DNA of 64,000 bases, taken from assembly GCA_028688375.1 (NCBI GenBank), contig JAQTYG010000001.1, positions 183,420 to 247,419 of the forward strand, in the 5' to 3' direction. The notes under the pieces were generated by a model. The model worked only from the letters and a program-made list of their open reading frames with translations. It was not told where the DNA came from and ran no database searches. This DNA is from Patescibacteria group bacterium (GTDB lineage Bacteria; Patescibacteriota; Patescibacteriia; Magasanikbacterales; GWA2-37-8). A program made the translations under genes and the position numbers. Every line of letters starts with the position of its first letter. Position 1 is the stretch's first letter. Shown piece after piece: positions 26,361 to 58,780 of the stretch.

Positions 26361-28511
26361 TTATTTTTTAGTCGCAGCGGCCGCGGTGGAGGTGCCGTTG
26401 GGGAATATTTGATTAATGTAATCTTTGTCTTGGTCCGTAAAAACCGCTTTATTCTTGTCGGCCAAAGTCCAAACCGACGGTATTTTTTCCGGCTGTCCGG
26501 TCAATTGGTAGATATAGGCTAAACGCCAGTAACCTTCTCCCGGACGCGGATTGTCAGCAATGGTTTGCAATAATAAACTAACCGCTTCATCCGGTTTATT
26601 TATCTGCGTATCCAACATGGCCAGCGCATAGATAATTTGCTGACGATGCGGAGAGTTAACTAGCGCTTGGCGTAAATAATTTTCCGATTCTTGAACGTAA
26701 AGTTGGTTATTTTCGATATACGCCTTGAATTGCGCCAATTGATAGAGGTTTAGATAGTTGCGCACATCTAAGGGATGGAGAATCGTATTCTTATTCAATT
26801 CGGCATAACAAAAATCCAAAACGCTTTTTATTATTTCATTGTTTAAGCTTTTCTGCTTTTCCGCGGCGTATAACATTTGCACGGCCGAACGACTCAAGTC
26901 GCTTCTAATATCATCAATATGAGGCGACCCGACAGAGACGGCGATTTTCATTTTTTCCAAACTGGCTGATGGATTAAGCGAAAGGGTTTTGATCGCATCC
27001 AACGTGGCCATGTTCGCCCGAGCCGGTTGGATATTAAAAATAAGGATGACGATAAAAGTCAGCAGGCCGACGGTGCAGACCGCGCCCAAACTAATCCGTT
27101 CGTTCGGTTCCGTTTTATAATTTTTATTTTTCTCGTTTCCCGCTATTTGCTCTTTATCGGTTGTAAGCTGATTAATCATCGCCAACCAACACATGAAATA
27201 TAGATACGAAGTAATATTTTCAAACACGGTAAGGTTACTGACAAAATGCGCGGCTAAAAATCCGCAACCAATCGCCAAAAGATGAACATCGATGCGTTCT
27301 CGCCGATAAGCTTGGATCAGCGCGATGGCCGCCACGATAAACAACGCGAAATACGTTAAAAAACCGACCGCACCCTGCACCGCTAATGTGTTCATGACAA
27401 TGTTGTGCGCGTTATCGAACCACGTTTCACTATAACCAAAATCCAGCGAGCGAGCGGTGTAATTGTAATTAAACGCGTAGAAATAATTATTCGGACCCCA
27501 GCCGAAAAACGGCCGTTGTAAAAAGCTTTCCCAAGCAATTTCCCAGGCCACCCAGCGCGGAGTCGCTTTGACATCTGTCCAGGAGGTATTTACCGCGCGG
27601 CCCACAGCCGGCATATTACTAACAAAATCAGTTTTGCGATAATTGTAAAGCAAGCCGACGATCAACACTACCAAAATCATTAAACCGAATAAAGAATATC
27701 GAGTTTTCGGATGTCCGCGAAGAGCCAGGGCGTAGGTAAAAATACACGCGCCGACGCCGGCCAGCAAACCCAATACCGCTCCTCTGGTACCACTGTAAAG
27801 GAGGCCGAGAAAAGCAAAGAACATCAAAAATAAATATATGCCTTGCCAAATTCTATTTTTATCTTTTACAAAAAGTAGAAACGCCAAAAACAAGAGGAAT
27901 AAACCATAGCCACCAACATAAATCGGGTTGCCTAGAGTACTGCCGACACGGCCGCTGCCCCCATTCAAAAGCAAATCCGGATTGGCGATTTGCAAAGCGC
28001 CGACAAACATAACGAGCGAGCCGGCTAAAAGAAGGACCCGCAACAACCATTTCCAATCAGTCCAAGTTTTAAAAAACTGGCTGGCCAATAAATAAAAAAC
28101 AAAGTAATGAAGGATGGTATAAAAGCCAAGCATTCTCTCGTGATTATCCCAAAAACTATGATAGGCGTCCGCGCCGACAAAAGTGGAGATGCCAAAACTA
28201 ATGACATAAAACGCGACCACGGCCGCGGTCAACGGCGTAAAACGCGGTTTGTATTCTTGCCAATTGATGATCAGAAGCAAAATATAAGCGCCGAGCATTA
28301 TTTCCACTAAAGAGCGGAACACCACTATTTTCGGCACGATAAAAGGGAAAATAAACGAACTGGGAATAACGATAAGCGGTACAAAAAAACTGACGTAAAT
28401 CAGGGCCTTGATAACAAATTCTAATTTCTTGCGATTCATATTAAATAAGGATAAAAAACCGGCCAGAACCCGGTTTATTCTTCTGGATCCCCGCCTGCGC
28501 GAGGATGACAA
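26361..28511 (-). CDS. O-antigen ligase/polymerase-like (Wzy_C-type) polytopic membrane protein with C-terminal TPR repeats
   Basis: Many TM helices; periplasmic loop [11 protein letters not shown] resembles the O-antigen ligase family motif; C-terminal about 250 aa TPR-like ([12 protein letters not shown]). Real start is probably the internal MNRKK. Confidence 0.5.
28478..28508. repeat. REP-like hairpin element family A (degenerate copy): CTGGATCCCCGCCTGCGCGAGGATGACA
   Basis: Matches the consensus CTGGATTCCCGCC-TKCGC-GGGAATGACA seen at 46637, 49256, 58753 and 42180. Confidence 0.55.
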
Positions 28512-28622
28512 ATTAATGATATTATTTTACGCAAAAACGGGCTAAACGTCAAATGGTAGTCGCGTATTGATTGTGCGGGGAAAATATGATACCCTAAGTA
28601 CTCGGACGACGAACAAAAAAAT

Positions 28623-29078
28623 ATGCAATACCGGACAAAAAATGAAAGTGAGACGGCGGAAGTTGGCAGAAAAACGGCAGCCGAACTCAACGGCGGTGAT
28701 ATCTTGTGTTTATACGGAGATCTGGGAGCCGGCAAGACAACCCTGGTAAAAGGGTTGGCCCGAGGGCTAGGACTTCGGCGCCGGATCACCAGCCCGACGT
28801 TCGCGCTAATGAATATATACGACGTACGAACCGCGAAAGACGCGGCGGTGCGCAAATTGGTTCACATCGACACCTACCGCTTGGAGAATGAGCGGGAATT
28901 AGTTGAAATCGGAATTGAAGATTATCTGGGCGCGCCGAACACGATTTGCGTGATTGAGTGGCCGGAAAAAATTAAGGGATTGCTTAAAAATAAAAAAACG
29001 CTCAATGTGCGGATTGAGCATACAAAAACCGGAAGGACGATCGTAGTAAACAGAAATTTGAAAACAGAAAACAGGTAA
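28623..29078 (+). CDS. tsaE: tRNA threonylcarbamoyladenosine biosynthesis ATPase TsaE
   Basis: GDLGAGKTTLVKGLARGLG Walker A and SPTFALMNIYD are typical of TsaE/YjeE; 151 aa. Confidence 0.8.
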   Translation: MQYRTKNESETAEVGRKTAAELNGGDILCLYGDLGAGKTTLVKGLARGLGLRRRITSPTFALMNIYDVRTAKDAAVRKLVHIDTYRLENERELVEIGIEDYLGAPNTICVIEWPEKIKGLLKNKKTLNVRIEHTKTGRTIVVNRNLKTENR

Positions 29079-29093
29079 GTGACGATTTTCTGT

Positions 29094-31015: not shown

Positions 31016-33169
31016 TTATGTTTTTTCTTGTGGCGTCGAAGCGATTTGCTCTGCCAACTCCTGTAAAATTTCTTCACGCGTGCGCTCGAAACCGGCGTCA
31101 TCCAAAATCACGAACCCGCCGTCGGCCTCTTCTTTCACCACGAAAGAATCGGGCACAATATCGCTTAAAAATTTACGCGCCGCGCCGGCGGCCATCTCGG
31201 ACGACATCCCTTCGCTCTTAAAACGGTGGCTTAGCGACAATTCGGCCTGGCGCCGCGCCGTCTCAATCGCTTTAGAAACTTCCGCGCCCTGTTCGGCTCT
31301 TTTTATGGCGCCCAGATGTTCGCGCAAGCGTTGGTCCTCCCTCCCCCTCTTTTTCTCCCCCTCGGGCAGGGGGAGAGACGCGCCGTCTTCTCGCCCGCTT
31401 TCTCCGTCAGCTCGTTCCGCGCTACCGACCGCGGTTTTGACTACCCGGCTGTTGGTGGCTTTTTGCAATTCCAACAGCAAATCATTGATATCTTCTCCGT
31501 TCGGCAAAGCTACTGTCACTTCATCCCCGCCGACTAAAGTAAAAATTTTATCTTTAGAATAATATCGGCCACAAACCTCCGCCACCTTGGCGCGCACCTC
31601 GCGCATTCTTTTTGTGGTGCTGTCCCCGGCTTTCAACGAGGCCTCGGCTAAACTTATTTTACCCGCATCAATGTCGTTCAACAAACGCTCATATTCCAAA
31701 AGCAAATCCACGCCCAAATCCATCACGTCAATGGAGACATACACCGCGTCCGGCATTTTCATCGCCTCGGAATGAAAAATTTCCGGCGAGGCGCAGGTCG
31801 CGTCTTTTTGATCTACTTTCAAAATGGCCGCGACGGCTTGGCGGTCGGCTTGATTAAGGTCCTTCATTTTCGCCAAATCAATCAAGCGCCGGGTTTTATC
31901 GACTTTGTTTTTCAAGGTATCGTCGGCCGAACCAGGCAATGAATTTTTCCCGGCAATTTCATCGGCGGTAAGCGGTTTGAATAAATCTAACAAATTAACT
32001 CGGCGAATATATTGTTCAACTTTTTTTACCGCTTCTTCTTGGCCGGGCGCCGGTTCAAATTTATTTTTTCTGATCGCCCTGACTAAATCACGATTGATCG
32101 TCCGCCGGCCGTCCACGGTTTGCCAAACCTCAAACGGCAAGCCGTTTTTATCTTTAATTACACCGGCCAATTCTTTACCCGAAGCGATAATATTTCCGAT
32201 TTCAGCTTTAATAAATTTAGCGTCATATTCCCCGCCGTATTTTTTCTGCTCGCCATGCCGTAAAACCTGCGCCATCTGTTGGCTTTCGGCCACGGCCAAA
32301 GCGGCCGGGGTGTAGTCGCCGGATTTTGGCGAAGCGCCAACTTTGCTGGCGCCAAAAGTCGCTTTAAAACCCCACTGGCCGAGCTTGTTTTTAAAACTAT
32401 CCAATTTTTTTAATTTGGCTTCTTTGGCCGCCGGCGCCAGGGACGAATTTTTTAATTCTGTTTCTTTGGTTTTGATAGTTTCCAGAATCACTTTTACCAT
32501 GGCCTGATCCAATTGCCGACCGAGAGCGTTCATAATGTCGGCGGTTTTATCCGGGCCGCCCAATTCTTTTATTTTTTCTTGGTTCGGTTTCAAAATCCCA
32601 CTGCGAAAATCCTGATGCAAAATTTCCAGTCCATGGTGTTCGGCCAGCGAAGCCATGTAGTTTTTTCTGTGGTCAATAATTTCGTCAGTTAACTGTTGAC
32701 CGAATAATTCGTCGTTAAAATATTTGACGGAAAAAATACCGGCCGGCATGGAAAAATATATGGCCGTATCGCCCTGGCGCAATTCGCTAAAAATCTTTTG
32801 CCAGCTGCGCGACTCCAAGGACGAGGCGATATTGGCTGATTCGCGATCTGTCAGCTCTGCCATCTCTCCACCCGCCAATTTATTAATAAATTCCGCCCGC
32901 GCCAAAGCGCCACGAGTGCGTTCCAGCGTCGCCGAGTCAACCAATTCCGTTTCCACCCGCCGTTGATATTCGCGCGTTTTCTTTTTGTCCGGACTGACTA
33001 ATTCCACCACTGCTGCGCCCTCGTCAAGACCGTCAATCATCAGGCGGTCCACCGCGTTCTCCACATCCGCTTCAGATATTTCAATCTCCCGTCCTTGAGG
33101 GGCGATTTCCGGCGACTGGGGATAAATTTCTTTCTCAGGCAAAATTGCCGCGGCTTTGTTATTGGTCAT
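31016..33169 (-). CDS. Hypothetical 717 aa protein, coiled-coil/charged N-terminal region and a C-terminal degenerate GGDEF-like (nucleotide cyclase fold) domain; carries an in-frame repeat insertion
   Basis: VSIDVMDLGVD ... GDSTTKRMREV ... LVGGDEVTVALP parallels the DxD...GDE...GGDEF blocks of diguanylate cyclases (GGDEV instead of GGDEF); segment [16 protein letters not shown] comes from repeat family C. Confidence 0.35.
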   Translation of the reverse strand: MTNNKAAAILPEKEIYPQSPEIAPQGREIEISEADVENAVDRLMIDGLDEGAAVVELVSPDKKKTREYQRRVETELVDSATLERTRGALARAEFINKLAGGEMAELTDRESANIASSLESRSWQKIFSELRQGDTAIYFSMPAGIFSVKYFNDELFGQQLTDEIIDHRKNYMASLAEHHGLEILHQDFRSGILKPNQEKIKELGGPDKTADIMNALGRQLDQAMVKVILETIKTKETELKNSSLAPAAKEAKLKKLDSFKNKLGQWGFKATFGASKVGASPKSGDYTPAALAVAESQQMAQVLRHGEQKKYGGEYDAKFIKAEIGNIIASGKELAGVIKDKNGLPFEVWQTVDGRRTINRDLVRAIRKNKFEPAPGQEEAVKKVEQYIRRVNLLDLFKPLTADEIAGKNSLPGSADDTLKNKVDKTRRLIDLAKMKDLNQADRQAVAAILKVDQKDATCASPEIFHSEAMKMPDAVYVSIDVMDLGVDLLLEYERLLNDIDAGKISLAEASLKAGDSTTKRMREVRAKVAEVCGRYYSKDKIFTLVGGDEVTVALPNGEDINDLLLELQKATNSRVVKTAVGSAERADGESGREDGASLPLPEGEKKRGREDQRLREHLGAIKRAEQGAEVSKAIETARRQAELSLSHRFKSEGMSSEMAAGAARKFLSDIVPDSFVVKEEADGGFVILDDAGFERTREEILQELAEQIASTPQEKT
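31337..31384. repeat. Intragenic palindromic repeat element family C, copy 2
   Basis: tccctccccctctttttctccccctcgggcagggggagagacgcgcc; near-identical to 25286..25340; translated in frame within the 717 aa ORF. Confidence 0.75.
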
Positions 33170-33581: not shown

Positions 33582-36110
33582 TTATTGCGCTGTCTGAAAG
33601 TAATGGAAGCTGCGATAATCAGACCAGGGAGTATAGGTTGAATTATTTAATTTGGCGCGCACTCGGAAACGATAGGTGTTATCTGTGCCCGGCGCCCAAT
33701 AGCTGTAAGAATTACTACCGGTGATATAGGTATTAACAAGCGCCCACTGGCTGGAATAACCGTTGCAATAATCGCAGGCCACTTCCACGTCGTAATTTTG
33801 GGCGTTGCTGACCGAATACCAGCCCAGATTAACCGAGCGCGAACTTTGATTGATCGCCGCGTTGTTGGCCGGAGTATAAACTACCGGCGCATTGCCGTAA
33901 GAATTGCCGTTGGAAGAACCGCCGGCGTTAACCGAGAACTCTCGCCAATCAGACCAATTGGAATAAGCGCCATCGGAAAATTTCGTGCGCACGCGCATTC
34001 GATAATTATTATCGTACGAAAAATACATGGTGGCGAAATTGCTCCAGGCGGTCTGGGTGCGTTCCTCATACCAGCCGGTGCCGGATTTGTAATTGACGTT
34101 TATTTCGTAAGAAACAGAATGGCTATCATTTGACCAAGTGGCGTAAACATTGCGGCCGGTAAATGTCTGGCCGGCGTTCGGCATACTGATCAAAGGCGCG
34201 TCATCTAAATGATCATAACCGCCGCCATACGGCCCAACCATAAACTCTCGCCAATCAGACCAATCGCCGTAGGAATTATCCCAAAATTTAGCGCGAGCGC
34301 GCAAACGATAATAACCGTCATTGGTTACGTTGAAATTTAAACTATTTTGGATAGAGCCGTAAATACCGTCAGGCGTGCCATAGACATACCAGGTATTTCC
34401 AGATTTGTAATTAACCTCTACTGCATAAACATAAGCGCTGGGGACAGCGGTCCAACTGGAATAAACGGTGTGGTAGGTTAAGTACTGATCCTCGGTCGGA
34501 TTATATACGGAAATCCCGTTGGAATTGGAATTGTATTTATAATGGAAATAGCGATAATCAGACCAGGTGGTAAAATTGCCATTGCCTAAATTGGCGCGCA
34601 CGCGAAAATGGCACCAGGTATCGTCGCCGTGAACGGCATATAAATTATAGACGGCGCCGAACGGCAAATACGGATAAATAGTTTCAGTGCCATAGCCGTC
34701 GCAAGTCATTTCTATGATGTAACCGGTAACACCGGACACGCCGCTCCAACTTAAAGACACCATGCGACTGCCATTTTCAACCACGGCATTTTGCGCCGGA
34801 GTATAAATTACGGGGGCGGTAGTGTTATTATTGGTGCCGACGGTAAACTCTCGCCAGTCAGACCAATCGCTGTAGACAGAAGTGGTAAAATGGGCGCGGA
34901 CGCGGAAACGATATTTGTTATCGTCGCTAATATTCAGAGTGGGATTAACGTTGTAGACAGAGGTGTTGCTTTTGTTCACCCAAGCGCCATTGGAAAAATA
35001 ATCAAGATCCATTTCATAAGCCTGTGCGCCGGAATTGCTGGTCCAGCTGGCATTCACGAGATGATCATTGAAAACCTGGCCCTGCCACGGCGCGGTGATC
35101 ACCGGCGCGTCGTAATTGTGACTTCCGTTGTCATAATAAAAATGGTTGTATTCGCTCCACCCGCCGTAACTGCCGTTGCGGAAAGCGCGGACGCGGAAAC
35201 TGTATTGGCCAAAAACGCCGGAAGATAAAGTGACAGAAGTGTCGCTCGCGGTAATCGTGTTTTCCACCACCAAAACCCAAAATGAACCATTGTTTCTGGT
35301 CACTTGATATTGGTAAGCGGTGGCGCCGGCCACGACCGACCAATCCAAAGTTACATTATTACTTGTCAAATGGGCTTCATCAGTCGGCAAAAGAAGCGAC
35401 GGGACGGTTAAATCCGTGCCCGAATGCGTATCCACCTTAAAATACCGCCACTCAGACCAGTTGGTGTAGGTGTTGTTGGATAATTGCGCGCGAATTTTCA
35501 CGCGGTAACTGTTATCCCAAATGCCTTCGCCGATCACGTAATTATTGCTGGTTTGATAATCAACAAAATTTTTCCAAACGCCGTTGGAAGAATATTCCAC
35601 CGTAATAAAATAGGTTTGCGCGCTGACGACCGAGTTCCAATGGAAATCCGTGGAGTCCCAATCCATCGTTTGGTTGGCGCCTGGCACGGTAATCACCGGA
35701 GCGGTGGTCACCGGAGTTTGGGCGGAAGTATTAAATCTAAAATATTTATAATCAGACCAGTAACCGGCGGTAGCGCCATCATAAGCGCGGACACGCCAGC
35801 GGAATTGGTTGTCGCCCGGCATGGTTACGGTCAAAGTTCTGGCCGTAGTAGAATAGGTTTTAGCGCCCTGCCATTTGTTGGTTTTGCTGACGCAAACATC
35901 GCAGGTCACTTCCACTTCATACTTGGTGGCGTGGGAGACACTATCCCAGGTGAAGGTGGTTTGACGCGGATAATTAGTCAAGGTTTGATTGGACGCCGGA
36001 GCGGTCAAGTACGGAGCCGATAAAACCGAGGCCTTGGCCGTACCGACAGCAAAAAACGACGCCACAAAAATGACGGCGAGCCAAGCAACGATTTGGGGAT
36101 ATTTACGCAT
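33582..36110 (-). CDS. Secreted/cell-surface protein with about 8 tandem fibronectin type III-like repeats
   Basis: N-terminal signal peptide MRKYPQIVAWLAVIFVASFFAVGTAKA; recurrent about 95 aa units each ending Y/F-RFRVRA ... WSDWREF / WSDYRYF. Confidence 0.7.
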   Translation of the reverse strand: MRKYPQIVAWLAVIFVASFFAVGTAKASVLSAPYLTAPASNQTLTNYPRQTTFTWDSVSHATKYEVEVTCDVCVSKTNKWQGAKTYSTTARTLTVTMPGDNQFRWRVRAYDGATAGYWSDYKYFRFNTSAQTPVTTAPVITVPGANQTMDWDSTDFHWNSVVSAQTYFITVEYSSNGVWKNFVDYQTSNNYVIGEGIWDNSYRVKIRAQLSNNTYTNWSEWRYFKVDTHSGTDLTVPSLLLPTDEAHLTSNNVTLDWSVVAGATAYQYQVTRNNGSFWVLVVENTITASDTSVTLSSGVFGQYSFRVRAFRNGSYGGWSEYNHFYYDNGSHNYDAPVITAPWQGQVFNDHLVNASWTSNSGAQAYEMDLDYFSNGAWVNKSNTSVYNVNPTLNISDDNKYRFRVRAHFTTSVYSDWSDWREFTVGTNNNTTAPVIYTPAQNAVVENGSRMVSLSWSGVSGVTGYIIEMTCDGYGTETIYPYLPFGAVYNLYAVHGDDTWCHFRVRANLGNGNFTTWSDYRYFHYKYNSNSNGISVYNPTEDQYLTYHTVYSSWTAVPSAYVYAVEVNYKSGNTWYVYGTPDGIYGSIQNSLNFNVTNDGYYRLRARAKFWDNSYGDWSDWREFMVGPYGGGYDHLDDAPLISMPNAGQTFTGRNVYATWSNDSHSVSYEINVNYKSGTGWYEERTQTAWSNFATMYFSYDNNYRMRVRTKFSDGAYSNWSDWREFSVNAGGSSNGNSYGNAPVVYTPANNAAINQSSRSVNLGWYSVSNAQNYDVEVACDYCNGYSSQWALVNTYITGSNSYSYWAPGTDNTYRFRVRAKLNNSTYTPWSDYRSFHYFQTAQ

Positions 36111-37236: not shown

Positions 37237-37245
37237 AATTAAAAG

Positions 37246-37270
37246 GTCCAGCGCAAGCTGGGTTTTTTAA
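37246..37270 (+). terminator. Rho-independent terminator CCAGC-GCAA-GCTGG followed by GTTTTTTAATTTT
   Basis: Read directly (GNRA-like tetraloop hairpin plus U-tract). Confidence 0.65.
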
Positions 37271-37296
37271 TTTTGTAATTTGTCCAGGGAATCGCA

Positions 37297-37317
37297 CCTG
37301 CCTGCCGGCAGGCAGGC
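37297..37317. repeat. GC-rich palindromic repeat family D (CCTGCCTGCCGGCAGGCAGGC), left flank of the AT-rich defense island
   Basis: 20/21 identical to 42257..42277; core TGCCTGCCGGCAGGCA is a perfect palindrome. Confidence 0.55.
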
Positions 37318-37448
37318 GGGCAGGAGCGAGCAACGAAGTTTTTGCGGAAGCAAAAACGAGGAAGCGAGAGTCGGCGGACTTCCAGTGAAAGTCCGCCGCT
37401 GCCCAGGACAAGGAGCCGAGCCGATTGTGGTCGGCTCGGCGACGCGGA

Positions 37449-37467
37449 ATTCCCGTACGGGCTACAA
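37449..37467. repeat. 19 nt direct repeat ATTCCCGTACGGGCTACAA, copy 2
   Basis: Identical to 37218..37236; preceded by several GC hairpins (GGCGGACTT..AAGTCCGCC, GCCGAGCCGA..TCGGCTCGGC). Confidence 0.6.
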
Positions 37468-37544
37468 CTGGCTTTTTGCTGAGGTTCCAGTTCACCAGCA
37501 CACTTTTTGCCCACTCGCTTTTGGCGGGACGATTTCAAGTTTTT

Positions 37545-39289: not shown

Positions 39290-39335
39290 ATAATATTTTC
39301 GGGTTATTTATAATATCATTATACTAGAAAGAATC

Positions 39336-40427: not shown

Positions 40428-40428
40428 A

Positions 40429-46624: not shown

Positions 46625-46636
46625 GATAAATAGTGT

Positions 46637-46664
46637 CTGGATTCCCGCCTGCGCGGGAATGACA
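46637..46664. repeat. REP-like hairpin family A: CTGGATTCCCGCCTGCGCGGGAATGACA
   Basis: Stem ATTCCCGC/GCGGGAAT; intergenic between the P-type ATPase and rlmN. Confidence 0.65.
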
Positions 46665-46675
46665 AGGTGAAAAAA

Positions 46676-49189
46676 TTAATTGTCTTCTCTACCCCGGATA
46701 ACCACAAAACCGGCGAAAACCGAAACGATAAACGAAACAACAAAAATCAGACCAAACGTTAGCCAAGAAATTGTCGCCAAATGAAATAACCCGCGCAAAA
46801 ACGGCACGAAAAAAATCACGGTTAAACCCAGAAAAGTGGCCAAAGAAATTATCGCCAAAGTTAAGTTGTTTTTTATCTGTTGCCATTCGCGCGTGGTGAA
46901 AATCAGCATAATCTGCGACACCACCAGCGAACCAAAAGCTAGAGTGGTGCCGGTAAAAAAGTCGTGGCGGATAAAGCCGAAATAACAGTACAGGCCAAAA
47001 CTGACGATAAAAATAGCCAGCGCCTGAACCACCACTTGTTTCCAAAGCCTGGGGTTGATGAGAGGTTCATCCACCGGACGCGGGGGCACGCGCATCACGT
47101 TGCGCGGAGCTTTTTCTTTTTCAAAACCCAGCACCGCCGCCGGATCGCAAATTAATTCTAAGAAAATTATATGGATGGGGAGAAAAATTAACGGCTGGCC
47201 AAAAAACAACGGGATGACGGCCAACCCGACAATCGGTAAATGAAAAGATAGCAAAAACATAAAAGCCTGTTGCATGTTGCGGTAGGTTTTTCGACCCTCT
47301 TTGACCGCGCGGGCGATGGTGGCAAAATTATCGTCCATCAGTACGATACCGGCCGCCTGGCGCGCCACTTCCGTGCCTTTCTGACCCATGGCCACGCCGA
47401 TGTTGGCCTTTTTCAAAGCCGGCGCGTCATTGACGCCGTCGCCGGTCATGGCCACTACTTCGCCGTTTTTTTGCAAGGCTTCCACGATTAAAAATTTTTG
47501 GTCCGGCCGAACGCGGGCGAAAATGTTATGTTCCGCCACGGTTTTTCGCAAAGCGGACGGCGACATTTTTTCCAGTTCATCCCCGCTGATAATCATGTCG
47601 TCGTGCTTCAGACCGACCTGTTCCGCCACATTGTGCGCTGTCATTTTGTTATCACCGGTAATCATCATCACCCGAATGCCGGCTTCCTGGCACATCTGGA
47701 TCGCCTCGCGCACGCGTGAACGCGGGGGGTCGCTCATGGCCAGCAGGCCGACGAAATTCATGGCGGTCGGGGCGATGATTGACTCACGGTCGCAATTTTT
47801 TACCGCCAAAGCGATGACGCGCAAACCGGCCGCGGCAAATTCTTCATAAACGGCCAATTTTTGTTTTTTCTCCGCTTCGGATAACGCGCAATTACCGATG
47901 ATCACTTCCGGCGCGCCGACCGAATATTGGGCGCAAGCGCCGGTAATTTTATCGCGCCAAATATGGTGGACCATTTTGGTGTGGGCGTCAAAAGGACTGT
48001 CTTTAAGCAGTTCAAAACCATCAAAAAATTCCTGGACATTGACGCCAATTTTGGCGGTAAAATTTTGCGCTTCAATTTCCAGCGGGTCGGTGGCGATGCG
48101 TTCCAACGAAAGAATCGCCGGCTTCATCAAATCAACCAGCGCCGTCGGGTCGGACATGGTTTTTATCTCAAACGCCTTGTGGTTGTAGAAAACCCGCTCC
48201 AATGACATGCGGCCTTCGGTCAGTGTGCCGGTTTTGTCGGTACAAATTACCGTGGCCGAACCAAGGGTTTCCACCATCGCCATTTCGCGCACCAAGGCGT
48301 TTTTCTTAGCCAAACGCCAGACGCCCAGAATCAAGAAAACGCTGAAAACAACGGGAAATTCCTCGGGAATCAAGGACATGGCCATGGTCAAAGCGCCCAG
48401 AGTCGCTTCTTTCCAGCCCTGAGCCAACGCTAAAATTAAACCGACGGTGCCGGACGAGAGCATGGCGACGATGGCGATGCTCCGGATTAAATGATTAATT
48501 TTTTTCTGCAACGGGGTTTTTTCTTTAATGATTTTTTCCAACAACGAACCGAGCCGGCCGTATTGGGTGTGCAGGCCGGTGGAATCAACAAATAATTCAC
48601 CCCCACCTTGAGTCACCAGCGTGCCTTGAAATAATTTATGCTCGCCGGCAATGTCGGCCGGTTTGTCCGGCAAAGATTTTTTCGTGGCCGGGGATGATTC
48701 GCCGGTCAGAACCGCTTCATCCACCAGCAGGCCGGGTCCGGAAAACAAAAAGCCATCGGCCGGCAATTTATCTCCGGCGGTCAGATGCACCAGATCGCCG
48801 GGCACGAGATTTTTTATATCTAAAGTAATAAGACGACCACCACGATAAACTTTGCATTGTTCGCTGATCATTTTATCCAATTCGGCCACGGCTTGGTCGG
48901 TTCTCTTTTGTTGAAAATATTGCATCAAACCGATTGGGATAATGGACAGAAAGAAAACCGCCGTTTCCACCAGATCGCCGATGAAATAATAAACCACGGC
49001 GGTGATGATGATTAGCAGCATCATCGGTTCGGAAAAAATATCCCAGAGCATTTTCAGGCGGGTTTTTCTTTTTATTCTCGGCCGTTCATTGGGGCCGTAT
49101 TTGACAGCGAGTTCGGCGGCCTGCTTAACTGACAAACCGCGGTAGGTGTTTTTCTCGCTCCAAATTGATTGAATAATTTCTGTGTTCAT
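46676..49189 (-). CDS. P-type cation-transporting ATPase (P2-type, Ca2+/Mg2+-like)
   Basis: ICTDKTGTLTEG phosphorylation motif, MTGDGVNDAPAL hinge motif, 10 TM architecture, 837 aa. Confidence 0.8.
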   Translation of the reverse strand: MNTEIIQSIWSEKNTYRGLSVKQAAELAVKYGPNERPRIKRKTRLKMLWDIFSEPMMLLIIITAVVYYFIGDLVETAVFFLSIIPIGLMQYFQQKRTDQAVAELDKMISEQCKVYRGGRLITLDIKNLVPGDLVHLTAGDKLPADGFLFSGPGLLVDEAVLTGESSPATKKSLPDKPADIAGEHKLFQGTLVTQGGGELFVDSTGLHTQYGRLGSLLEKIIKEKTPLQKKINHLIRSIAIVAMLSSGTVGLILALAQGWKEATLGALTMAMSLIPEEFPVVFSVFLILGVWRLAKKNALVREMAMVETLGSATVICTDKTGTLTEGRMSLERVFYNHKAFEIKTMSDPTALVDLMKPAILSLERIATDPLEIEAQNFTAKIGVNVQEFFDGFELLKDSPFDAHTKMVHHIWRDKITGACAQYSVGAPEVIIGNCALSEAEKKQKLAVYEEFAAAGLRVIALAVKNCDRESIIAPTAMNFVGLLAMSDPPRSRVREAIQMCQEAGIRVMMITGDNKMTAHNVAEQVGLKHDDMIISGDELEKMSPSALRKTVAEHNIFARVRPDQKFLIVEALQKNGEVVAMTGDGVNDAPALKKANIGVAMGQKGTEVARQAAGIVLMDDNFATIARAVKEGRKTYRNMQQAFMFLLSFHLPIVGLAVIPLFFGQPLIFLPIHIIFLELICDPAAVLGFEKEKAPRNVMRVPPRPVDEPLINPRLWKQVVVQALAIFIVSFGLYCYFGFIRHDFFTGTTLAFGSLVVSQIMLIFTTREWQQIKNNLTLAIISLATFLGLTVIFFVPFLRGLFHLATISWLTFGLIFVVSFIVSVFAGFVVIRGREDN

Positions 49190-49247
49190 GTGGTTTTAAA
49201 TAGCTCTCGTTGTCACCCCCGACCCGATCGGGGGTCCAGGAACTCGC

Positions 49248-51491
49248 TTACTTTTCTGGATTCCCGCCTTCGCGGGAATGACAAATATGTACATTTTTTT
49301 TAACGAGGCTCTCCGTGTCCAAACCAGCTTGACCGTAGACTTCCGTCGCTCGGCCGGATTTAAGAAAATGATCCACGCCGATGAGGCGGTTCTGATAACC
49401 GGCCGGTTGGATAAACTCGCGGGTAAATTCATTCCAGCCGTTGTGCAGAGCGATAACAGTGGCCCTTTCTTCATCGGATAAAATGGCTTGCGCTTTTTTC
49501 GGATCGGTTTTTTCCAGTTCCACAAATAATTCCGGCGAAGTGACGACAACGATTTTTACGTCCAATTTTTGTTTGGCTAAATCGGGCAGGGCTAGTAAAA
49601 CATTTTGCAGAAGCGTGGCGCCACAAACCGCCAGCGCGATTTTTTTGCCGGCGCCGGTGTATTCTTTATAGATGTAAGCGCCATCGCAGGCGGATGAGGC
49701 CGGCGTATTTTTTCTGTCTAACACCGGAGTCTCCGAACGGGACAGGGCCAAAACAATCGGCTCGCCTTTCTCCAAAGCGAAAAACAGCATCTCAATTACT
49801 TCATTGGCATCGGTCGGCTTGTAAACTTTTATCCCGGGATAAGCGTCAAACAAAGACATCCAATACATGCCCTGGTGGGTCGGGCCGTCTTCGCCTGTTT
49901 CCGGGCCGTCATGTGTGGCCAGAGCGATAAAAAAGCCCTGTGTAGCCGGATTGGCGGCATTGGCCACCAGCGCCAAATGCACGGCGTGACCATACATAGC
50001 GGTAAAAACGCCGTAAGTGCCGAACACTGATACCGGCCGGAAACCGCCGGGTAAAACATCCTGCGTCAAGGCCATAGACATCATGGCCATATTTTGTTCA
50101 GCGATGCCAAAACGAATGCCCCGGCCGAACTTATTTTGCGCGTTGATGATGCCATAAACATGCTCCGACTGGCCGAGCAAAACCGATTTGCTCAAATCCC
50201 CCGCTCCGGCGTAAAAAAACGCGGTCTGCTCCATCAACCATTTGCACCAGAGCTCGGAGGCCTGGCGCATGCTAATTTTGTCGCCGGGCTTGAAGGCAAG
50301 TTCGGGCGGGAGGTTTTTCGGACGCTTGATGCCACGCGGATTTATCAGCGGACGATTGGGCAAAGTTTTTTTCATCCGCGCTATCAGTTCAGATTCCGGT
50401 TCAATTTTGTCCGCGCCTTTTTCCAATTGCCAATCAATAAACGAAGCATCGTCTTCAGTCAACGCGTCCAAAATCTTTTGAATATCACGGGCGACATTTC
50501 CCTTTTCTCCGGGCGCGCTAAAACCAAGCTGTTTCAAAATTTTTACATAATCTTCATGGTCGGTCGGCGAACCATGCGAGGCAGTGGTGTTTTCTTTGGC
50601 GCCGTATTCTTTGCCTTTGATAGTGTGGGCGATAATTGCTGTCGGCCGGCTGTTGTCAAAACCTTGGCGGGCGATGGCGTAGGCGTAAAGAAGTTCGTTG
50701 ACATTGTGGCCATTTGCTTCAATCACATTCCAACCAAAACCGAGCCAATAATTCAAATACGGCGCGCTCATGGCTTCTTCAATCGGGCCGTCAATACCAA
50801 AATGATTGTAATCAAGTGAGACGATAATATTGTCGGTGGCGGTGGCGACCAAAACATTGCGCGCTTCAAAAGTCATGCCCTCTTCGCTCTCGGCATCGCC
50901 CATCATCACCCAAACTTTGGTCGGCAGACCGCAACTGGCGTGCGCGATAGCCATACCGCCGGCGGCGGAAAAACCATGGCCGGACGGACCGGTGCAATAG
51001 TCGGCATAGGGATATTGGCTTTCGGCATGACCGGGCGGACCGTCCAAACGGCGGAATTGCGACAAGTGTTCGGGCAGAACGCAATTAACCACGGCTTCAG
51101 AAAATTGGCGACCGGCTCGGCGCATGGCTTCATAGTATAGCGCCTGTCCGCCGTACAAAAGCGGGGTGCAGTGGCCGGCGCTCCAAATCAACCGGTCTCG
51201 GCCGGGATGTTTGGGGTCGGCCGGATCAAAGGCCAGCGAACCGCCCAGGGTAAGCGCTAAAAATTGTTCCACTTTGGAGCTACTGCCCCCGGGATGGCCG
51301 GACCGGGCGCCTTCCACGGTGGCAAAAATAAGGCCACGGAGAATTTTGGCCAGACGGTCTAAACGAGAAATGTCTAGGCCGTTATATGGCTCCAATTCAG
51401 CGTCTTGCAATTTAATATATGTAGCGCCGTCGTTTTTTCCGTTTACTGTCAATTTTTTCAGGTCTTTGGCAACAAGGGGGTTAAGGGGCAT
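49248..51491 (-). CDS. tkt: Transketolase (full length, with an approximately 60 aa N-terminal extension)
   Basis: GHPGGS ThDP motif, GDG..EG block, FGIAEQNMAMM pyrimidine-binding region; 747 aa. Confidence 0.8.
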   Translation of the reverse strand: MPLNPLVAKDLKKLTVNGKNDGATYIKLQDAELEPYNGLDISRLDRLAKILRGLIFATVEGARSGHPGGSSSKVEQFLALTLGGSLAFDPADPKHPGRDRLIWSAGHCTPLLYGGQALYYEAMRRAGRQFSEAVVNCVLPEHLSQFRRLDGPPGHAESQYPYADYCTGPSGHGFSAAGGMAIAHASCGLPTKVWVMMGDAESEEGMTFEARNVLVATATDNIIVSLDYNHFGIDGPIEEAMSAPYLNYWLGFGWNVIEANGHNVNELLYAYAIARQGFDNSRPTAIIAHTIKGKEYGAKENTTASHGSPTDHEDYVKILKQLGFSAPGEKGNVARDIQKILDALTEDDASFIDWQLEKGADKIEPESELIARMKKTLPNRPLINPRGIKRPKNLPPELAFKPGDKISMRQASELWCKWLMEQTAFFYAGAGDLSKSVLLGQSEHVYGIINAQNKFGRGIRFGIAEQNMAMMSMALTQDVLPGGFRPVSVFGTYGVFTAMYGHAVHLALVANAANPATQGFFIALATHDGPETGEDGPTHQGMYWMSLFDAYPGIKVYKPTDANEVIEMLFFALEKGEPIVLALSRSETPVLDRKNTPASSACDGAYIYKEYTGAGKKIALAVCGATLLQNVLLALPDLAKQKLDVKIVVVTSPELFVELEKTDPKKAQAILSDEERATVIALHNGWNEFTREFIQPAGYQNRLIGVDHFLKSGRATEVYGQAGLDTESLVKKNVHICHSREGGNPEK
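49256..49283. repeat. REP-like hairpin family A: CTGGATTCCCGCCTTCGCGGGAATGACA
   Basis: Between the tkt stop and the ATPase start; preceded by an 8 bp GC hairpin ACCCCCGA..TCGGGGGT. Confidence 0.65.
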
Positions 51492-52352: not shown

Positions 52353-52388
52353 CCGCCACGTGCGTAGTTATGCGTGGCGGGTTTTTTG
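52353..52388 (+). terminator. Rho-independent terminator CCGCCACG-loop-CGTGGCGG followed by GTTTTTT
   Basis: Read directly; downstream of the NDT gene. Confidence 0.65.
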
Positions 52389-52391
52389 TGT

Positions 52392-52427
52392 AAAAAAATG
52401 AGCCCGCGACGGACGACGTCGGAGCTC
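52392..52427 (-). terminator. Rho-independent terminator (GAGCTCCGACG..CGTCGCGGGCTC hairpin followed by a U-tract on the minus strand) after small paralog A
   Basis: Same element recurs at 52907..52943 after paralog B. Confidence 0.55.
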
Positions 52428-52456
52428 GAGAGAAAGAACGGGGGTGTGGCGGTAGG

Positions 52457-52840
52457 CTACTTGGCGAGGTCGGCGGGCACGGGAGGACCTTCGACGACAG
52501 GGAGACCGAGAAGGCGCTGCTGTTCGGGCGTGAGCAGGCTGAGAGCTTTCTTGACCGCTTCGGCCCGGATCGCTTCCTGGTCGCTGAGTTCGACCGGAGT
52601 GTTGTTGAGAACATATCCAGTCTTGCCGTCTTTCGTCAGGACGGACACCTCCACCACATTGCCGTCTCTACCGTACCAGGCCCTCCCCCTACCTTCCGCT
52701 GTGGCCAGGTCTTTGTCGGAGAAATATCCTCCGATATTCCAGCTGTTGCCCATCTCGTTATCGGAGAGTTGTAACATATACCATGTTTCAACTCGCCAAC
52801 CAGCCAGACCTTCTTTGAGCAGTTCCGGCACCATGTTCAT
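52457..52840 (-). CDS. Hypothetical small protein, paralog A (127 aa) of a tandem duplicated cassette
   Basis: AAGGAGG Shine-Dalgarno; shares GWRVETWY, VLTKDGKTG and LLGLP blocks with paralog B; TTGACA-17-TAAAGT promoter at about 52880..52908. Confidence 0.55.
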   Translation of the reverse strand: MNMVPELLKEGLAGWRVETWYMLQLSDNEMGNSWNIGGYFSDKDLATAEGRGRAWYGRDGNVVEVSVLTKDGKTGYVLNNTPVELSDQEAIRAEAVKKALSLLTPEQQRLLGLPVVEGPPVPADLAK

Positions 52841-52906
52841 TCCCTCCTTTTGGGTTGTTGCTGTTTTAGGTTCGAATGCACTTTACTATGAGTGTATTTT
52901 TTTGTC

Positions 52907-52943
52907 AAAAAAAATGAGCCCGCGACGGACGACGTCGGAGCTC
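52907..52943 (-). terminator. Rho-independent terminator after small paralog B (duplicate of 52392..52427), immediately followed by the TTGACA -35 of the paralog A promoter
   Basis: Read directly. Confidence 0.55.
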
Positions 52944-52973
52944 TGAAAGAAGGAGCGGGGGTATGGCGGTAGG

Positions 52974-53345
52974 CTATCTGAGGAAAGGCAGGCCGAGAAG
53001 CTGACACTCTTCGGCGGTGAGTACGGTTCCGATTTTTTTGAGGGCTTCGGCTTTTCTGGCGGCGAGCCGGTTTTCCTCGTCTTCGATCTCGATTACTTCC
53101 CCGCGGAGAGTCCAGCCAGTCTTGTCGTCTTTGGTCAGGACGTGAACCGCTTCCACGACCGCGTCCGAACAAGCTGAGCAGGAACCTCGTTCGTCCCCGT
53201 GTGCGAGGCGAGCCTGATTCTCGCTGGGAAAATACCTCACCTTATCTCCGGCAGGAACCGCGCCGGCAGATAAGGTCATCAGTCCGTACCAGGTTTCCAC
53301 TCGCCAACCGACCTTTTTCAGGTCCTCCATGAGTTCTTCCCACAT
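52974..53345 (-). CDS. Hypothetical small protein, paralog B (123 aa); Cys-containing variant (CSACSD)
   Basis: AAGGAGGG Shine-Dalgarno; TTGACA-17-TAGAGT promoter at about 53395..53425; paralogous to 52457..52840. Confidence 0.55.
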   Translation of the reverse strand: MWEELMEDLKKVGWRVETWYGLMTLSAGAVPAGDKVRYFPSENQARLAHGDERGSCSACSDAVVEAVHVLTKDDKTGWTLRGEVIEIEDEENRLAARKAEALKKIGTVLTAEECQLLGLPFLR

Positions 53346-55693: not shown

Positions 55694-56053
55694 CTAGCTT
55701 TCAAAATTGTAAGTTTTTTCCTCCCGAACGCGACGCTTATCTTTTTTAATTTTTTCGCGCTGGAGAATTTTGTGTTTCTTCAATTCGCCTTCCAGATAAT
55801 CGCGCACCTTGTCAATCGCTTTGTAGAGATTTTTTTCGTTTTTGGAGGCAAACAAATCCACGCCCGGCACGTCCAGCCGGCATTCGGCGATAAACACCTC
55901 GCCTTTCAGGTGGTGGTCGGTTTCCTTGCCGACTTTTACTTCCGCTTTAATGATTTGATCGTAAAATTTTTCCAAACCACCGATTTTTTTATCCACGTAA
56001 GCCTTGATCGCTTCGGTTAAATCCATGCCCTTGCCACTGATGATGATTTTCAT
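55694..56053 (-). CDS. hpf: Ribosome hibernation promoting factor (RaiA/HPF family)
   Basis: MKIIISGKGMDLTEAIKAYVDKKIGGLEKF matches the YfiA/HPF family; 119 aa. A 12 nt direct repeat ATTGAAGATTTA x2 lies upstream (56058..56082). Confidence 0.75.
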   Translation of the reverse strand: MKIIISGKGMDLTEAIKAYVDKKIGGLEKFYDQIIKAEVKVGKETDHHLKGEVFIAECRLDVPGVDLFASKNEKNLYKAIDKVRDYLEGELKKHKILQREKIKKDKRRVREEKTYNFES

Positions 56054-56098
56054 AAAATTGAAGATTTAGGATTGAAGATTTATGATTAAATTTGGAAT

Positions 56099-57043
56099 TT
56101 ATGGCATGATGATTTCTACTTCCGGTTCAAGCCAGACCCTATACTTATCATACACTCTTCCTTTTATTTCTTCAACCAGAGCGACGACATCGGCTTGAGT
56201 AGCATTGCCGGCGTTGATAATAAAATTGCCGTGTTGCGGAGAAACCTGCGCGCCGCCGATTTTCACGCCTTTTAGGCCGGCTTGTTCCACCAACCAACCG
56301 GCCGGAATCATGCCTCGTTCGCGATAAATCTCCGGTAAGTTGCCGGGCAAAGCGCCCGGCCAATCGCCGGTTTTGATATTTTTAAAAAAACTGCCGGCCG
56401 AAGGCACCGTCGGCAATTTCTGCGACCGACCGAGTAAAATCTCCTGCATTTTTTTAACCACCGACGCTTGGTCGGATGGGATAAGTTTGAAGGTCGCGCG
56501 CAAAACCACTCCCCCATCGCGCTTGAAAATACTATCGCGATAACCGAAGGCGCACTCGGCCGAGGTGAGCGCCGTTGTTTCGCCGTTACGCCACGCTTCA
56601 ACCTGTTTAATATTTTGGGCCATATCCGAACCGTGCGCGCCAGCGTTGCCACGAACCGCTCCGCCGACCGTACCCGGGATGCCGGTCGCCCATTCCAATC
56701 CGGACAAACCGCGCGCCGCGGCTTCGTTGACCGCCGTGGATAACAGCGCGCCAGCTTCAATAATAATTTCGTCTTTGTCCGTCCGACATTTGGCGCAGTC
56801 AATTTTAATCACCACGCCACTAAACCCTTCATCCGGCGCCAGCACGTTTGACCCGCCACCGAGAATAAAAAAATCCTCACCCGCGCCGGATAGGAAATTT
56901 AATAAAGCGGGCAGTTTATCCGCCTCGCTGACTGTCACCACATATTTGGCCGGTCCGCCGATTTTAAAAGTGGTGTGCCGGGATAACAACACGTTAGTCT
57001 TGGTTTTTCCGTATTTTTTCAGCTCGGGATAGAGCAGATCCAT
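56099..57043 (-). CDS. murB: UDP-N-acetylenolpyruvoylglucosamine reductase
   Basis: LSRHTTFKIGGPAKYVV FAD-binding N-terminus and GGSN motif; 314 aa. Confidence 0.8.
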   Translation of the reverse strand: MDLLYPELKKYGKTKTNVLLSRHTTFKIGGPAKYVVTVSEADKLPALLNFLSGAGEDFFILGGGSNVLAPDEGFSGVVIKIDCAKCRTDKDEIIIEAGALLSTAVNEAAARGLSGLEWATGIPGTVGGAVRGNAGAHGSDMAQNIKQVEAWRNGETTALTSAECAFGYRDSIFKRDGGVVLRATFKLIPSDQASVVKKMQEILLGRSQKLPTVPSAGSFFKNIKTGDWPGALPGNLPEIYRERGMIPAGWLVEQAGLKGVKIGGAQVSPQHGNFIINAGNATQADVVALVEEIKGRVYDKYRVWLEPEVEIIMP

Positions 57044-57045
57044 AC

Positions 57046-58743
57046 TTGCTTTTTTCCTTATTTCCAGGTATTATTACCCCATTATATGGGAAAAATATGG
57101 TCTTGGCAAATGAAGTAAAAACAACGCTAAAAAAGAAACTCGGCCGGAAGCGGCTTTTTTATGTCTGCCGAGACGCGGAGCGCGCCGAAGCCGGACTTTT
57201 GCTTGGCCTGGCGAACTTTTTTATCGTGACCAACGACGGCCCCTATAGCCGCCAGCTGGCAAAGAAATACCGGAATATTTTGATTGTCCGAGGAAAGAAA
57301 ATTTTAGGCACGCATGAAATTCTGGCTAATTCCGCGATTAAGAAAAAAATTCGCCGAGGTGATTTTATTTTACTCTTTAAGCAGATGGAAAAAATTGAAA
57401 AAATCTGCGCCGAGCGCGGCTGGGTTTTGCTGAACCCGCCGACGGCGCTGGCCACGCGAGTGGAAGAAAAAATCTCGCAAGTGAAGTGGCTGGGCGCGTT
57501 AAAAAAATATTTGCCGTTGATTAAAATTGATATTTTAAAAAATATTTCCTGGGGCGGAAAAAAATTCATTTTACAATTTAATCGCGCTCACACCGGCGGT
57601 GGCACCATGTTGATTGACACGGCCAAAAAACTGAACGATTTAAAAAAGAAATTTCCGGCGCGCGAGGCGCGACTGGCCAAATTCGTGGCGGGGCCGAGTT
57701 TTACGGCCAACTGCGTTGTGTCGGGCAAAAAGGTTTTGCTTGGCAATATCAGCTACCAAATCACCGGCTTACGGCCGTTTACTGACAATCCCTTCGCCAC
57801 TATCGGCAATGACTGGGCTTTGCCGAAGAAAATTTTGAATAAAGAACAGCTGGGCGCGATTGAAACTATCGCCCGGGCCGTGGGCGCGAAATTAGCGCGT
57901 GATGGTTGGCGCGGACTGTATGGCATTGACGTTTCCATAGACGAAAAAACCGGGCGCGTCTATTTGATTGAAATCAACGCCCGACAACCGGCTTCCACCA
58001 GTTGGGAATCAATCTTACAGAATGAACACCGGATAATGGGTGGATTGACCGTGTTCGAAGCGCACTTATTAGCTTTACTGAAATGCGCCAGCGGACAAAA
58101 AATTATTCCGATTAGCAACGGCGCGCAAATTATTCAACGGGTAACCAAGGATACGCCACGATTGCCGGAGCCGAAACTTTTTAAACCGATTGAATTCCAT
58201 TACATCCGCTACGAAAATACAGAAATTGATAACGATCTTTTGCGGTTGCAGACCGGGTGCGGGGTAATGGCCAAGCATAGTCAGTTAAATCCGCACGGGG
58301 AAGAACTTTCCGTTTTTGTCCGTTTTACCCGAAGCCGACGGGCTTCTAACTGCCCGCGGGCCGGCGCGATCATTACACGGAACGGGCGCATCCTTTTGCT
58401 GAAACGCCACCGTTACGGGTATAATTACTGGGTGGTGCCGGGCGGAACACCCGAAAAAAACGAGAATATGGCCACGACCGCCAGACGAGAAATCCTGGAA
58501 GAAACCGGTTTGCGCGCGATACTTGATACCCAACAACCGCCGCTTCGTATTAACGGTACCCGCGATGAAACTTACTATTTTACGAAATCATTCAACGGGC
58601 GGGCGCGGTTGGGCGGACCGGAAAGAAAAAGTAGTTGTCCGGAAAACCACTACACTTTGAAGTGGGTGCCGATTAAAGAACTTAAAAAAATAAATTTGTT
58701 GCCGGTAGAATTAAAGGAAAAATTGATAAAAATATTGTGTTAA
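57046..58743 (+). CDS. Fusion protein: N-terminal ATP-grasp ligase domain plus C-terminal NUDIX hydrolase domain
   Basis: ATP-grasp-like core ending RVYLIEINARQ; Nudix box GGTPEKNENMATTARREILEETGL (Gx5Ex7REUxEExGU). Start could alternatively be the ATG at 57097 (MVLANEV), which has a GGGAAA RBS. Confidence 0.55.
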   Translation: MLFSLFPGIITPLYGKNMVLANEVKTTLKKKLGRKRLFYVCRDAERAEAGLLLGLANFFIVTNDGPYSRQLAKKYRNILIVRGKKILGTHEILANSAIKKKIRRGDFILLFKQMEKIEKICAERGWVLLNPPTALATRVEEKISQVKWLGALKKYLPLIKIDILKNISWGGKKFILQFNRAHTGGGTMLIDTAKKLNDLKKKFPAREARLAKFVAGPSFTANCVVSGKKVLLGNISYQITGLRPFTDNPFATIGNDWALPKKILNKEQLGAIETIARAVGAKLARDGWRGLYGIDVSIDEKTGRVYLIEINARQPASTSWESILQNEHRIMGGLTVFEAHLLALLKCASGQKIIPISNGAQIIQRVTKDTPRLPEPKLFKPIEFHYIRYENTEIDNDLLRLQTGCGVMAKHSQLNPHGEELSVFVRFTRSRRASNCPRAGAIITRNGRILLLKRHRYGYNYWVVPGGTPEKNENMATTARREILEETGLRAILDTQQPPLRINGTRDETYYFTKSFNGRARLGGPERKSSCPENHYTLKWVPIKELKKINLLPVELKEKLIKILC

Positions 58744-58752
58744 TTTTAATAA

Positions 58753-58780
58753 CTGGATTCCCGCCTTCGCGGGAATGACA
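58753..58780. repeat. REP-like hairpin family A: CTGGATTCCCGCCTTCGCGGGAATGACA, overlapping the start codon of the next gene
   Basis: The ATGACA of the repeat supplies the ATG at 58775. Confidence 0.65.

Follow-up and report, generated by a model that had tools for sequence, protein, structure and literature searches.

SsnA, a single-domain GIY-YIG nuclease of 94 aa (cd10448), recognises in single-stranded DNA (ssDNA) the Neisseria Transformation Sequence (NTS), which is defined as CGTCATTCCCGCGMAVGCGGGAATCYRG (Chenal et al., Nat Commun 2025, PMC11893778). SsnA binds the NTS strand only as ssDNA and cleaves it a few nucleotides upstream, and it is inactive on double-stranded DNA, on RNA and on the complementary strand. 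Binding depends critically on the C that follows the palindrome, and cutting on the three bases (GTC) that precede it. The core of the NTS is dRS3, ATTCCC-N8-GGGAAT, for which the same study cites Parkhill et al. 2000. In Neisseria, the Ssn/NTS system modulates recombination around flanked genes, and 2% of the NTS of N. meningitidis lie within genes. Ssn genes and NTS-like Ssn-related motifs (SRMs) are associated across many bacterial phyla, and an Ssn homologue is present in 81% of the genomes with more than 200 SRMs; PMC11893778 makes no mention of Patescibacteria or archaea. Here we describe a dispersed hairpin family, family A, in a 64,000-nt stretch of a Patescibacteria genome (GenBank assembly GCA_028688375.1, contig JAQTYG010000001.1, positions 183,420 to 247,419; hereinafter the window). 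Judged from its sequence, family A is the NTS/SRM hairpin, a known kind of element in a new host, and not a genome-specific repetitive extragenic palindromic (REP) element. With a probability of roughly 75%, we consider the window hairpins to be Ssn recognition hairpins that have spread as small non-autonomous units and mark loci at which an Ssn encoded elsewhere would cut ssDNA in a strand-specific manner.

Family A follows the pattern CTGGATTCCCGCCTKCGCGGGAATGACA, which reads TGTCATTCCCGCG[A/C]AGGCGGGAATCCAG on the minus strand. The exact 28-mer is present in three copies, at 46637-46664, 49256-49283 and 58753-58780, and a fourth match, with three mismatches, lies at 28483-28510. The pattern is absent from 100 dinucleotide-preserving shuffles, which rules out a chance origin of the family. 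The three exact copies agree with the NTS consensus at all but one position (27 of 28), and the agreement extends to the GTC head, the ATTCCCGCG/GCGGGAAT stem and the C that follows the palindrome. Specifically, the minus-strand layout is (T)GTC-ATTCCCGCG-MAG-GCGGGAAT-C-CAG, the ATTCCC-N8-GGGAAT core of dRS3 is present, and all positions critical for Ssn binding and cutting are retained. The published SRM pattern, coded from PMC11893778 as HGTCWYN(0-2)YYVSBRHN(0-5)WNVSBRGN(0-2)RNCYNB, has five matches in the window (28483−, 46637−, 49211+, 49256− and 58753−), compared with 0.1 ± 0.3 in 100 dinucleotide shuffles. A literal text search of papers for GGGAATGAC returned unrelated primers only.

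The family A hairpin consists of an 8-bp stem and a loop of 3-4 nt, and GTC and the C are kept in every full copy; these asymmetric flanks lend the semi-palindrome an orientation. As ssDNA, the exact copies fold with −8.9 to −10.7 kcal/mol (z −4.1 to −5.2). The listed copies (28483, 42181, 42307, 42402, 46637, 49256 and 58753) share one common orientation. Counting full and partial units of all kinds between 28 and 62 kb, 9 of the 12 are located in spacers and 3 overlap coding sequence. The sequence-only reading had described a dispersed, hairpin-forming and mostly extragenic repeat family, and the contrast of four matches with none in the shuffles confirms that it is real. Its positions at 46637, 49256 and 58753 hold, whereas the copy that it placed at 28478 lies 5 nt further right; the enlarged-loop copy and the partial copy that it reported are found at 42181-42230 and 42402-42416, respectively.

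The copies at 46637-46664(−) and 58753-58780(−) are exact NTS-type SRMs and stand solo. The former is the most stable exact copy (−10.7 kcal/mol, z −5.2), and the latter begins 10 nt past the stop codon of an ATP-grasp/NUDIX gene. The 58753 element holds ATG 58775, the first in-frame ATG of ORF 58775-59602, but in-frame ATGs are also present at 58781 and 58787, so that the suggested supply of the start codon of the downstream gene is no more than a possibility. The copy at 28483-28510(−) matches the SRM pattern, folds with −6.3 kcal/mol and represents an NTS-like subtype, TGTCATCCTCGCGCAGGCGGGGATCCAG, which is also found in another genome stretch (L124). It is located in the spacer between a divergent Wzy_C-like gene (probable ATG 28439) and tsaE (28623).

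The 28-mer is not confined to this genome. In a scan of one genome per GTDB species, it is present, letter for letter, in at least 120 genome stretches (designated L and a number) from dozens of phyla, which rules out a lineage-specific REP family. Among the matches listed are 16 Patescibacteria, Zixibacteria, Planctomycetota, Nitrospirota, Chloroflexota and Omnitrophota, as well as Alpha-, Beta-, Gamma- and 'Delta'-proteobacteria and a Rickettsia endosymbiont. The exact 28-mer is also present on 79 IMG/VR stretches. One of the genome stretches listed, L007, carries it at 1508-1535; this is a 3.8-kb contig binned as Nanoarchaeota, which may reflect either spread to DPANN archaea or a binning error. 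The palindrome is longer in some genomes, for example in Hatepunaea. The 20-nt flanks of 134 exact copies hold at most 0.19 bit per position; thus the conserved unit is the 28-mer itself. The possibility that the 28-mer is the end of a longer miniature inverted-repeat transposable element (MITE) was rejected on the same flanks.

In other genomes, the identical 28-mer flanks GIY-YIG genes. A small GIY-YIG ORF (~95 aa, PF01541, E 1e-13 to 1e-15) was detected in 9 of the 120 8-kb stretches listed. In L054, L087, L027 and L013, an NTS(+) precedes the ATG of the ssn gene and an NTS(−) follows its stop, with the spacing TGTCATTCCCGCG...CCAG, 5-15 nt, ATG-ssn-stop, 10-20 nt, CTGG...GGGAATGACA. In these four loci the 28-mers form inverted terminal copies of the ssn unit, with GTCA outermost. 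A GIY-YIG gene also adjoins the motif in three IMG/VR stretches. The GIY-YIG (Ssn-like) protein family is very large: at E ≤ 1e-15 it comprises at least 7,872 clusters, whose members are mostly on very short contigs. The window and the NTS/SsnA system have in common a multi-copy, mostly extragenic hairpin. They differ in that the window belongs to a Patescibacteria host, contains no ssn gene, holds at least 2-3 motif families and has copies on stop codons and in coding sequence.

The same evidence bears on the idea that the hairpins are a classical REP family, or its mosaic form, bacterial interspersed mosaic elements (BIMEs), mobilised by a REP-associated tyrosine transposase (RAYT) of the IS200/IS605-like Y1 type. 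REPs are defined as palindromes whose 5' end carries the tetranucleotide GTAG (or GTGG), and their partner is RAYT, a Y1 HUH protein. The window elements resemble the REP/BIME-RAYT systems of E. coli and Pseudomonas in being short, imperfect, extragenic palindromes, in forming ssDNA hairpin substrates, in occurring as inverted pairs and in a BIME-resembling mosaic, and in having a partner gene that, in other genomes, is flanked by its own repeats. However, the conserved head is GTCA, with no GTAG or GTGG at either end, the motif-flanked genes elsewhere encode a GIY-YIG hydrolase instead of a HUH/Y1 transposase, and the 28-mer is identical across phyla whereas REPs are lineage-specific. Pfam scans of essentially all window ORFs of at least 90 aa returned no Y1_Tnp, RAYT, IS200, IS110, Piv or integrase domain, ruling out a RAYT, IS200 or IS110 partner in the window at this ORF size. 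Mobilisation by a RAYT is therefore extremely improbable. The REP label of the sequence-only reading is not sustained by the spread of the 28-mer and its lack of a GTAG head, and the search for a RAYT/IS200-like gene that it suggested was carried out, with no Y1_Tnp domain in any window ORF. Its expectation of a dedicated protein partner is probably right, except that the documented partner is the GIY-YIG nuclease Ssn and not a protein of the RAYT/IS200 type.

A reading of the hairpins as intrinsic terminators is not supported either. GC-rich 8-bp stems between genes are what an intrinsic terminator or attenuator would look like, and a terminator role had been proposed for family A. Among 53 terminator-like calls in the window, none is on a family A copy, and neither strand has a T/U run after the stem, where the flanks read CCAGA... 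and GACAA...; the candidate was rejected on this ground. In addition, one copy is within the end of an ORF and one family-B-like copy is inside coding sequence, and SsnA does not bind RNA (PMC11893778). We regard termination or attenuation as very unlikely. In an Rfam scan of the window, tRNA was the only gathering-score match. A permissive match to the Francisella small RNA FtrB covers 46601-46686, over the NTS copy at 46637, with 31 bits against a gathering cutoff of 66; it is sub-threshold and the region is not a member of that family. An SRM-like hairpin may be part of the FtrB model itself.

The comparison with relatives bears on how the copies came to be in the window. The best protein matches of the host are to Patescibacteria, Candidatus Magasanikbacteria, and window proteins were otherwise found only on short Logan contigs (SRR22315506 and SRR22315507) within the window bounds. 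Relatives were located via the P-type ATPase (54-58% identity). In three of them (L122, L123 and L127), the gene order transketolase-ATPase-(radical SAM)-penicillin-binding protein (PBP)-Mur ligase is kept, and the spacers are 0-30 nt long and contain no SRM. In the window, each enlarged spacer of the transketolase-ATPase-radical SAM-PBP stretch holds an element: a pair between transketolase and ATPase, the solo 46637 copy between ATPase and radical SAM, and a family-B unit (45544-45579) between radical SAM and PBP. Specifically, the spacer from the P-type ATPase stop to the radical-SAM start is 51 nt in the window, with the 46637 copy, and 0-5 nt in relatives. Because the spacers of the relatives are this short and lack the hairpin, the window copies are, by this comparison, lineage-specific insertions relative to the syntenic relatives.

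Some of these insertions reach into genes. The transketolase ORF 49248-51491(−) runs through the exact copy at 49256-49283(−), which adjoins the transketolase coding end and matches both the family A and the SRM patterns, and thereby gains the C-terminal tail CHSREGGNPEK. The transketolases of relatives and of the PDB end at about the start of the element. The statement that all copies are intergenic is therefore incorrect for this copy. The radical-SAM gene 45569-46624(−) ends within the family-B unit at 45544-45579, the first 11 nt of which provide the final two codons and the TGA stop of that gene. At 61287-61313, a family-B-like unit forms part of an in-frame ~13-aa insertion (APKGSLDSARDDK) in an ATE/GNAT-like protein (60902-61591(+)), and 16 of 17 homologues are without it.

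The 49256 copy is one arm of a pair. A variant SRM, TGTCACCCCCGACCCGATCGGGGGTCCAG, at 49211-49239(+) is paired head-to-head with 49256-49283(−) across a gap of 16 nt and forms the right arm of the pair; it matches the SRM pattern, and it is absent from the list of the sequence-only reading. Among 220 SRM matches in the 120 stretches listed, neighbours within 150 nt are head-to-head in 49 cases, tandem in 10 and tail-to-tail in none, with gaps mostly of 5-35 nt, and the window pair conforms to this pattern. At the same junction in L124 (3305-4985, equivalent to L125), an extra 465-aa gene is present between transketolase and ATPase, bracketed on both sides by head-to-head SRM pairs, compared with the one heterogeneous pair in the window. 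This arrangement suggests gene gain or loss between SRM pairs.

A second site of interest is a NIME-like mosaic of ~295 nt at 42181-42475(−), recognised by sequence reading and by matches to family-B and NTS units. It contains a split NTS, a degenerate NTS (42307-42335), a half NTS (42402-42416), two family-B units and three unrelated GC-rich palindromes. The split NTS, 42181-42230(−), is the first unit of the mosaic. Its 8-bp stem ATTCCCGC/GCGGGAAT is present again at 42185-42226 around an enlarged loop, where the 3-nt loop is replaced by 25 nt that include half of an opposite-strand SRM (ATCCTCGCGAAAGCGGGG), and it folds with −13.1 kcal/mol (z −3.6). The dRS3/NIME arrays of Neisseria have the identical core palindrome, and the mosaic, with full, half and variant units and short repeats at the border of an accessory island, resembles them. 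It differs from them in its host, which is not Neisseria, and in that its arrays are far smaller, RS-type spacer repeats and DNA uptake sequences are absent, and the mosaic spacers are unrelated GC palindromes.

The mosaic is located at the border between an island at 37.2-42.1 kb and a Mur ligase gene. In L122 and L127, tRNA-Glu(CTC) directly adjoins the Mur ligase gene, while ~5 kb of island separates the two in the window. The island (37237-42134) has a lower GC content and encodes an M78/IrrE-like peptidase, a CHAP-SH3 protein, a GmrSD-HNH nuclease, an EcoRI-like adenine methylase and a Hypoth_Ymh protein. The 3' end of the tRNA is partly repeated at ~37443-37466, and no integrase was found in the island. 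The palindrome CCTGCCTGCCGGCAGGCAGG is present at 37297-37316, adjoining the tRNA, and at 42257-42277, within the mosaic; it is also located upstream of the GIY-YIG ORF in L107.

dRS3 is a target for the Neisseria filamentous Nf/MDA phages, an IS110/Piv-type use. By analogy, an IS110/Piv-type recombinase might use the window hairpins as target or attachment sites, or they might serve as breakpoints at which islands are gained and lost. The position of the mosaic exactly at the border of the 5-kb island and the extra gene bracketed by SRM pairs in L124 and L125 fit this idea. On the other hand, no IS110, Piv or integrase domain is encoded in the window, and most copies are solo, in tiny spacers and without cargo. 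We consider this explanation highly improbable.

Family B is a second hairpin family in the same region. Its elements end in GGATGACA or GGGTGACA and are located at 42375-42400, 42429-42454, 45544-45579 and 61287-61313. The minus-strand reading is TGTCAYCCTGAGCG-AAG-CGAAGGATC, which falls outside the published SRM pattern but has the GTCA head and the GGATC tail in common with the SRM. The unit at 45544-45579(−), TGTCATCCTGA-CCCCGCAAGATGCGGGG-GAAGGATC, folds with −11.9 kcal/mol (z −4.1), and the family-B-like unit at 61287-61313(−), within coding sequence, has a weak fold (z −0.2). These two copies have a left flank, CCGAAGGGATCC, in common. In L076 (Dehalococcoidaceae), two family-B-type motifs flank a GIY-YIG gene with GTCA outward. 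Because of this one locus and the shared GTCA-outward architecture, family B is probably the motif of another Ssn specificity. A further motif, GTCACCCCCGA, is distinguished from the SRM and family B, and at least two or three motif families co-reside in this genome.

The proposal that the hairpins are Ssn recognition sites spread as small units is best weighed against the alternative that they are orphan or relic SRMs. In the latter case, they arrived horizontally or were seeded by a nuclease that has since been lost, no cognate Ssn is present, and their effect is passive (a hairpin at gene ends, for example protecting mRNA 3' ends) or they are tolerated junk. The searches for an Ssn gene speak for this alternative. 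No GIY-YIG/Ssn ORF or pseudogene was found in the 64-kb window: an HMM profile built from 9 locus-derived Ssn-like ORFs (hmmsearch --max) gave a best E of 1, phmmer with two GIY-YIG sequences returned no Ssn, and the translated hairpins themselves were the sole tblastn matches. No NTS-type Ssn gene was seen among the 16 Patescibacteria stretches listed, and the GIY-YIG gene of one of them (L119) is flanked by another, third hairpin type, GTCGTTGCGA.... Three further points weigh, together with these, against the reading as spreading Ssn sites. A hydrolytic GIY-YIG enzyme is no obvious transposase. Although inverted GTCA-outward pairs are present as in MITEs with classical terminal inverted repeats (49 vs 0), flush target-site duplications at the element ends are not above the shuffled control. 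Finally, the relatives that supply the empty sites are distant (54-65% aa identity), and loss instead of gain is possible.

The relic alternative also accommodates the degenerate, half and split copies at 42307, 42402 and 42181, the 81% figure for Ssn homologues in SRM-rich genomes (PMC11893778) and the location of most copies on the coding strand, just past or overlapping gene ends. However, in three exact copies none of the positions that Ssn needs for binding and cutting is lost, which would be unexpected after long decay, and the Ssn search covered 64 kb of the genome. We therefore consider relic SRMs rather unlikely.

We return to the Ssn recognition hairpins as the preferred explanation, for which motif identity, architecture and insertion status come from the sequences compared here, the nuclease activity is known from PMC11893778, and the presence and role of Ssn in this genome are inferred. 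The hairpins, probably including family B and the CCCCCGA variants, would be recognised by one or more Ssn-type nucleases, which may be encoded outside the window or brought in by phages or other mobile DNA. The hairpins would spread as tiny non-autonomous units, either solo or as GTCA-outward pairs, and settle at sites that a compact genome tolerates, namely gene ends, short spacers and a surface loop. The predicted consequence is strand-specific cutting of ssDNA forms of the loci, as in incoming transforming, conjugative or phage DNA, and this cutting may influence recombination in the vicinity of the flanked genes, as it does in Neisseria.

A bolder version goes further, and we put it forward only tentatively. 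The solo SRMs and GTCA-outward pairs could be actively mobile non-autonomous derivatives of NTS-ssn-NTS, i.e., products of a GIY-YIG-driven ssDNA insertion system that makes no target-site duplication. Such a system could move between bacterial phyla, candidate-phyla bacteria, phages and possibly DPANN archaea, and could colonise stop codons, minimal spacers and protein loops. Several motif/nuclease specificities might then operate in one genome of ~1 Mb, with the pairs marking cargo-gene junctions.

In-frame insertion of palindromic elements into coding genes is also known from the Rickettsia palindromic elements (RPEs), which the family-B-like unit at 61287-61313 resembles in this respect. 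RPEs are 100-150 bp long and are known only from Rickettsia, whereas the elements here are 27-51 nt long and belong to widely distributed motif families. The longest of them is a separate GC-rich hairpin element of 51 nt (...CTCTCCCCCTGCCNGAGGGGGAGA...), present in frame in coding sequence at 25286-25336 and 31337-31387 (92% identical). The first copy encodes the 16-residue C-terminal tail of a GDP-mannose dehydratase gene (25283-26347), and the second encodes an internal 16-residue stretch of a 717-aa ORF (31016-33169). Its behaviour is RPE-like, and it is a repeat family separate from A and B.

Several other features of the window are as follows. A low-GC (37-40%) polysaccharide/O-antigen-type cluster occupies 1-26350 and encodes GT2, GT10 and GT-D glycosyltransferases, sugar epimerases/dehydratases, a DegT aminotransferase, a split transketolase-like pair, a flippase and a Wzy-like gene. 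The SRM pattern search detected no SRM in this cluster (1-26 kb). The left end of the cluster, which is also the point at which the Logan contigs break, carries a 300-nt direct repeat (22-321 and 823-1122, 83% identical). At 33582-36110, an 842-aa secreted-looking protein contains ~100-aa repeats with a recurring W-S-D-W-R-x-F (DNA repeats D2 and D9) and has only a weak Ig-like Pfam match. Two paralogous small genes without Pfam match, 52457-52840(−) and 52974-53345(−), are present in the region 52382-53345, each followed by the same 63-nt repeat with a terminator-like hairpin, GTCCGTCGCGGGC, and a T-run. At ~56000-57100, the GC skew turns from negative to positive; because the change coincides with the strand switch between murB(−) and the ATP-grasp/NUDIX gene (+), which are 2 nt apart, it is probably a strand-switch effect and not a replication origin.

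Elements of the NTS/SRM kind were described in 2025, and their dRS3 core was already known in 2000. What the window adds are modest extensions: a Patescibacteria host, empty-site comparisons, overlap with stop codons and a coding loop, several co-resident motif families, and the statistic of strict GTCA-outward pairing. For this genome, a vague 'REP-like' label is replaced by the specific and experimentally characterised Ssn/NTS system, and the predicted partner is corrected to a GIY-YIG nuclease. For annotation, the elements explain recurrent junk peptides (SFPRRRES, VIPAKAGIQ and LDSRLRGND) and artificially extended ORF ends. The window provides filled and empty sites in a streamlined genome, with hairpin gain at gene ends and inside coding sequence. 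How NTS/dRS3-type repeats multiply is a question raised in the Discussion of PMC11893778, and small genomes of this kind, with near-zero spacers in their relatives, are good material for it.

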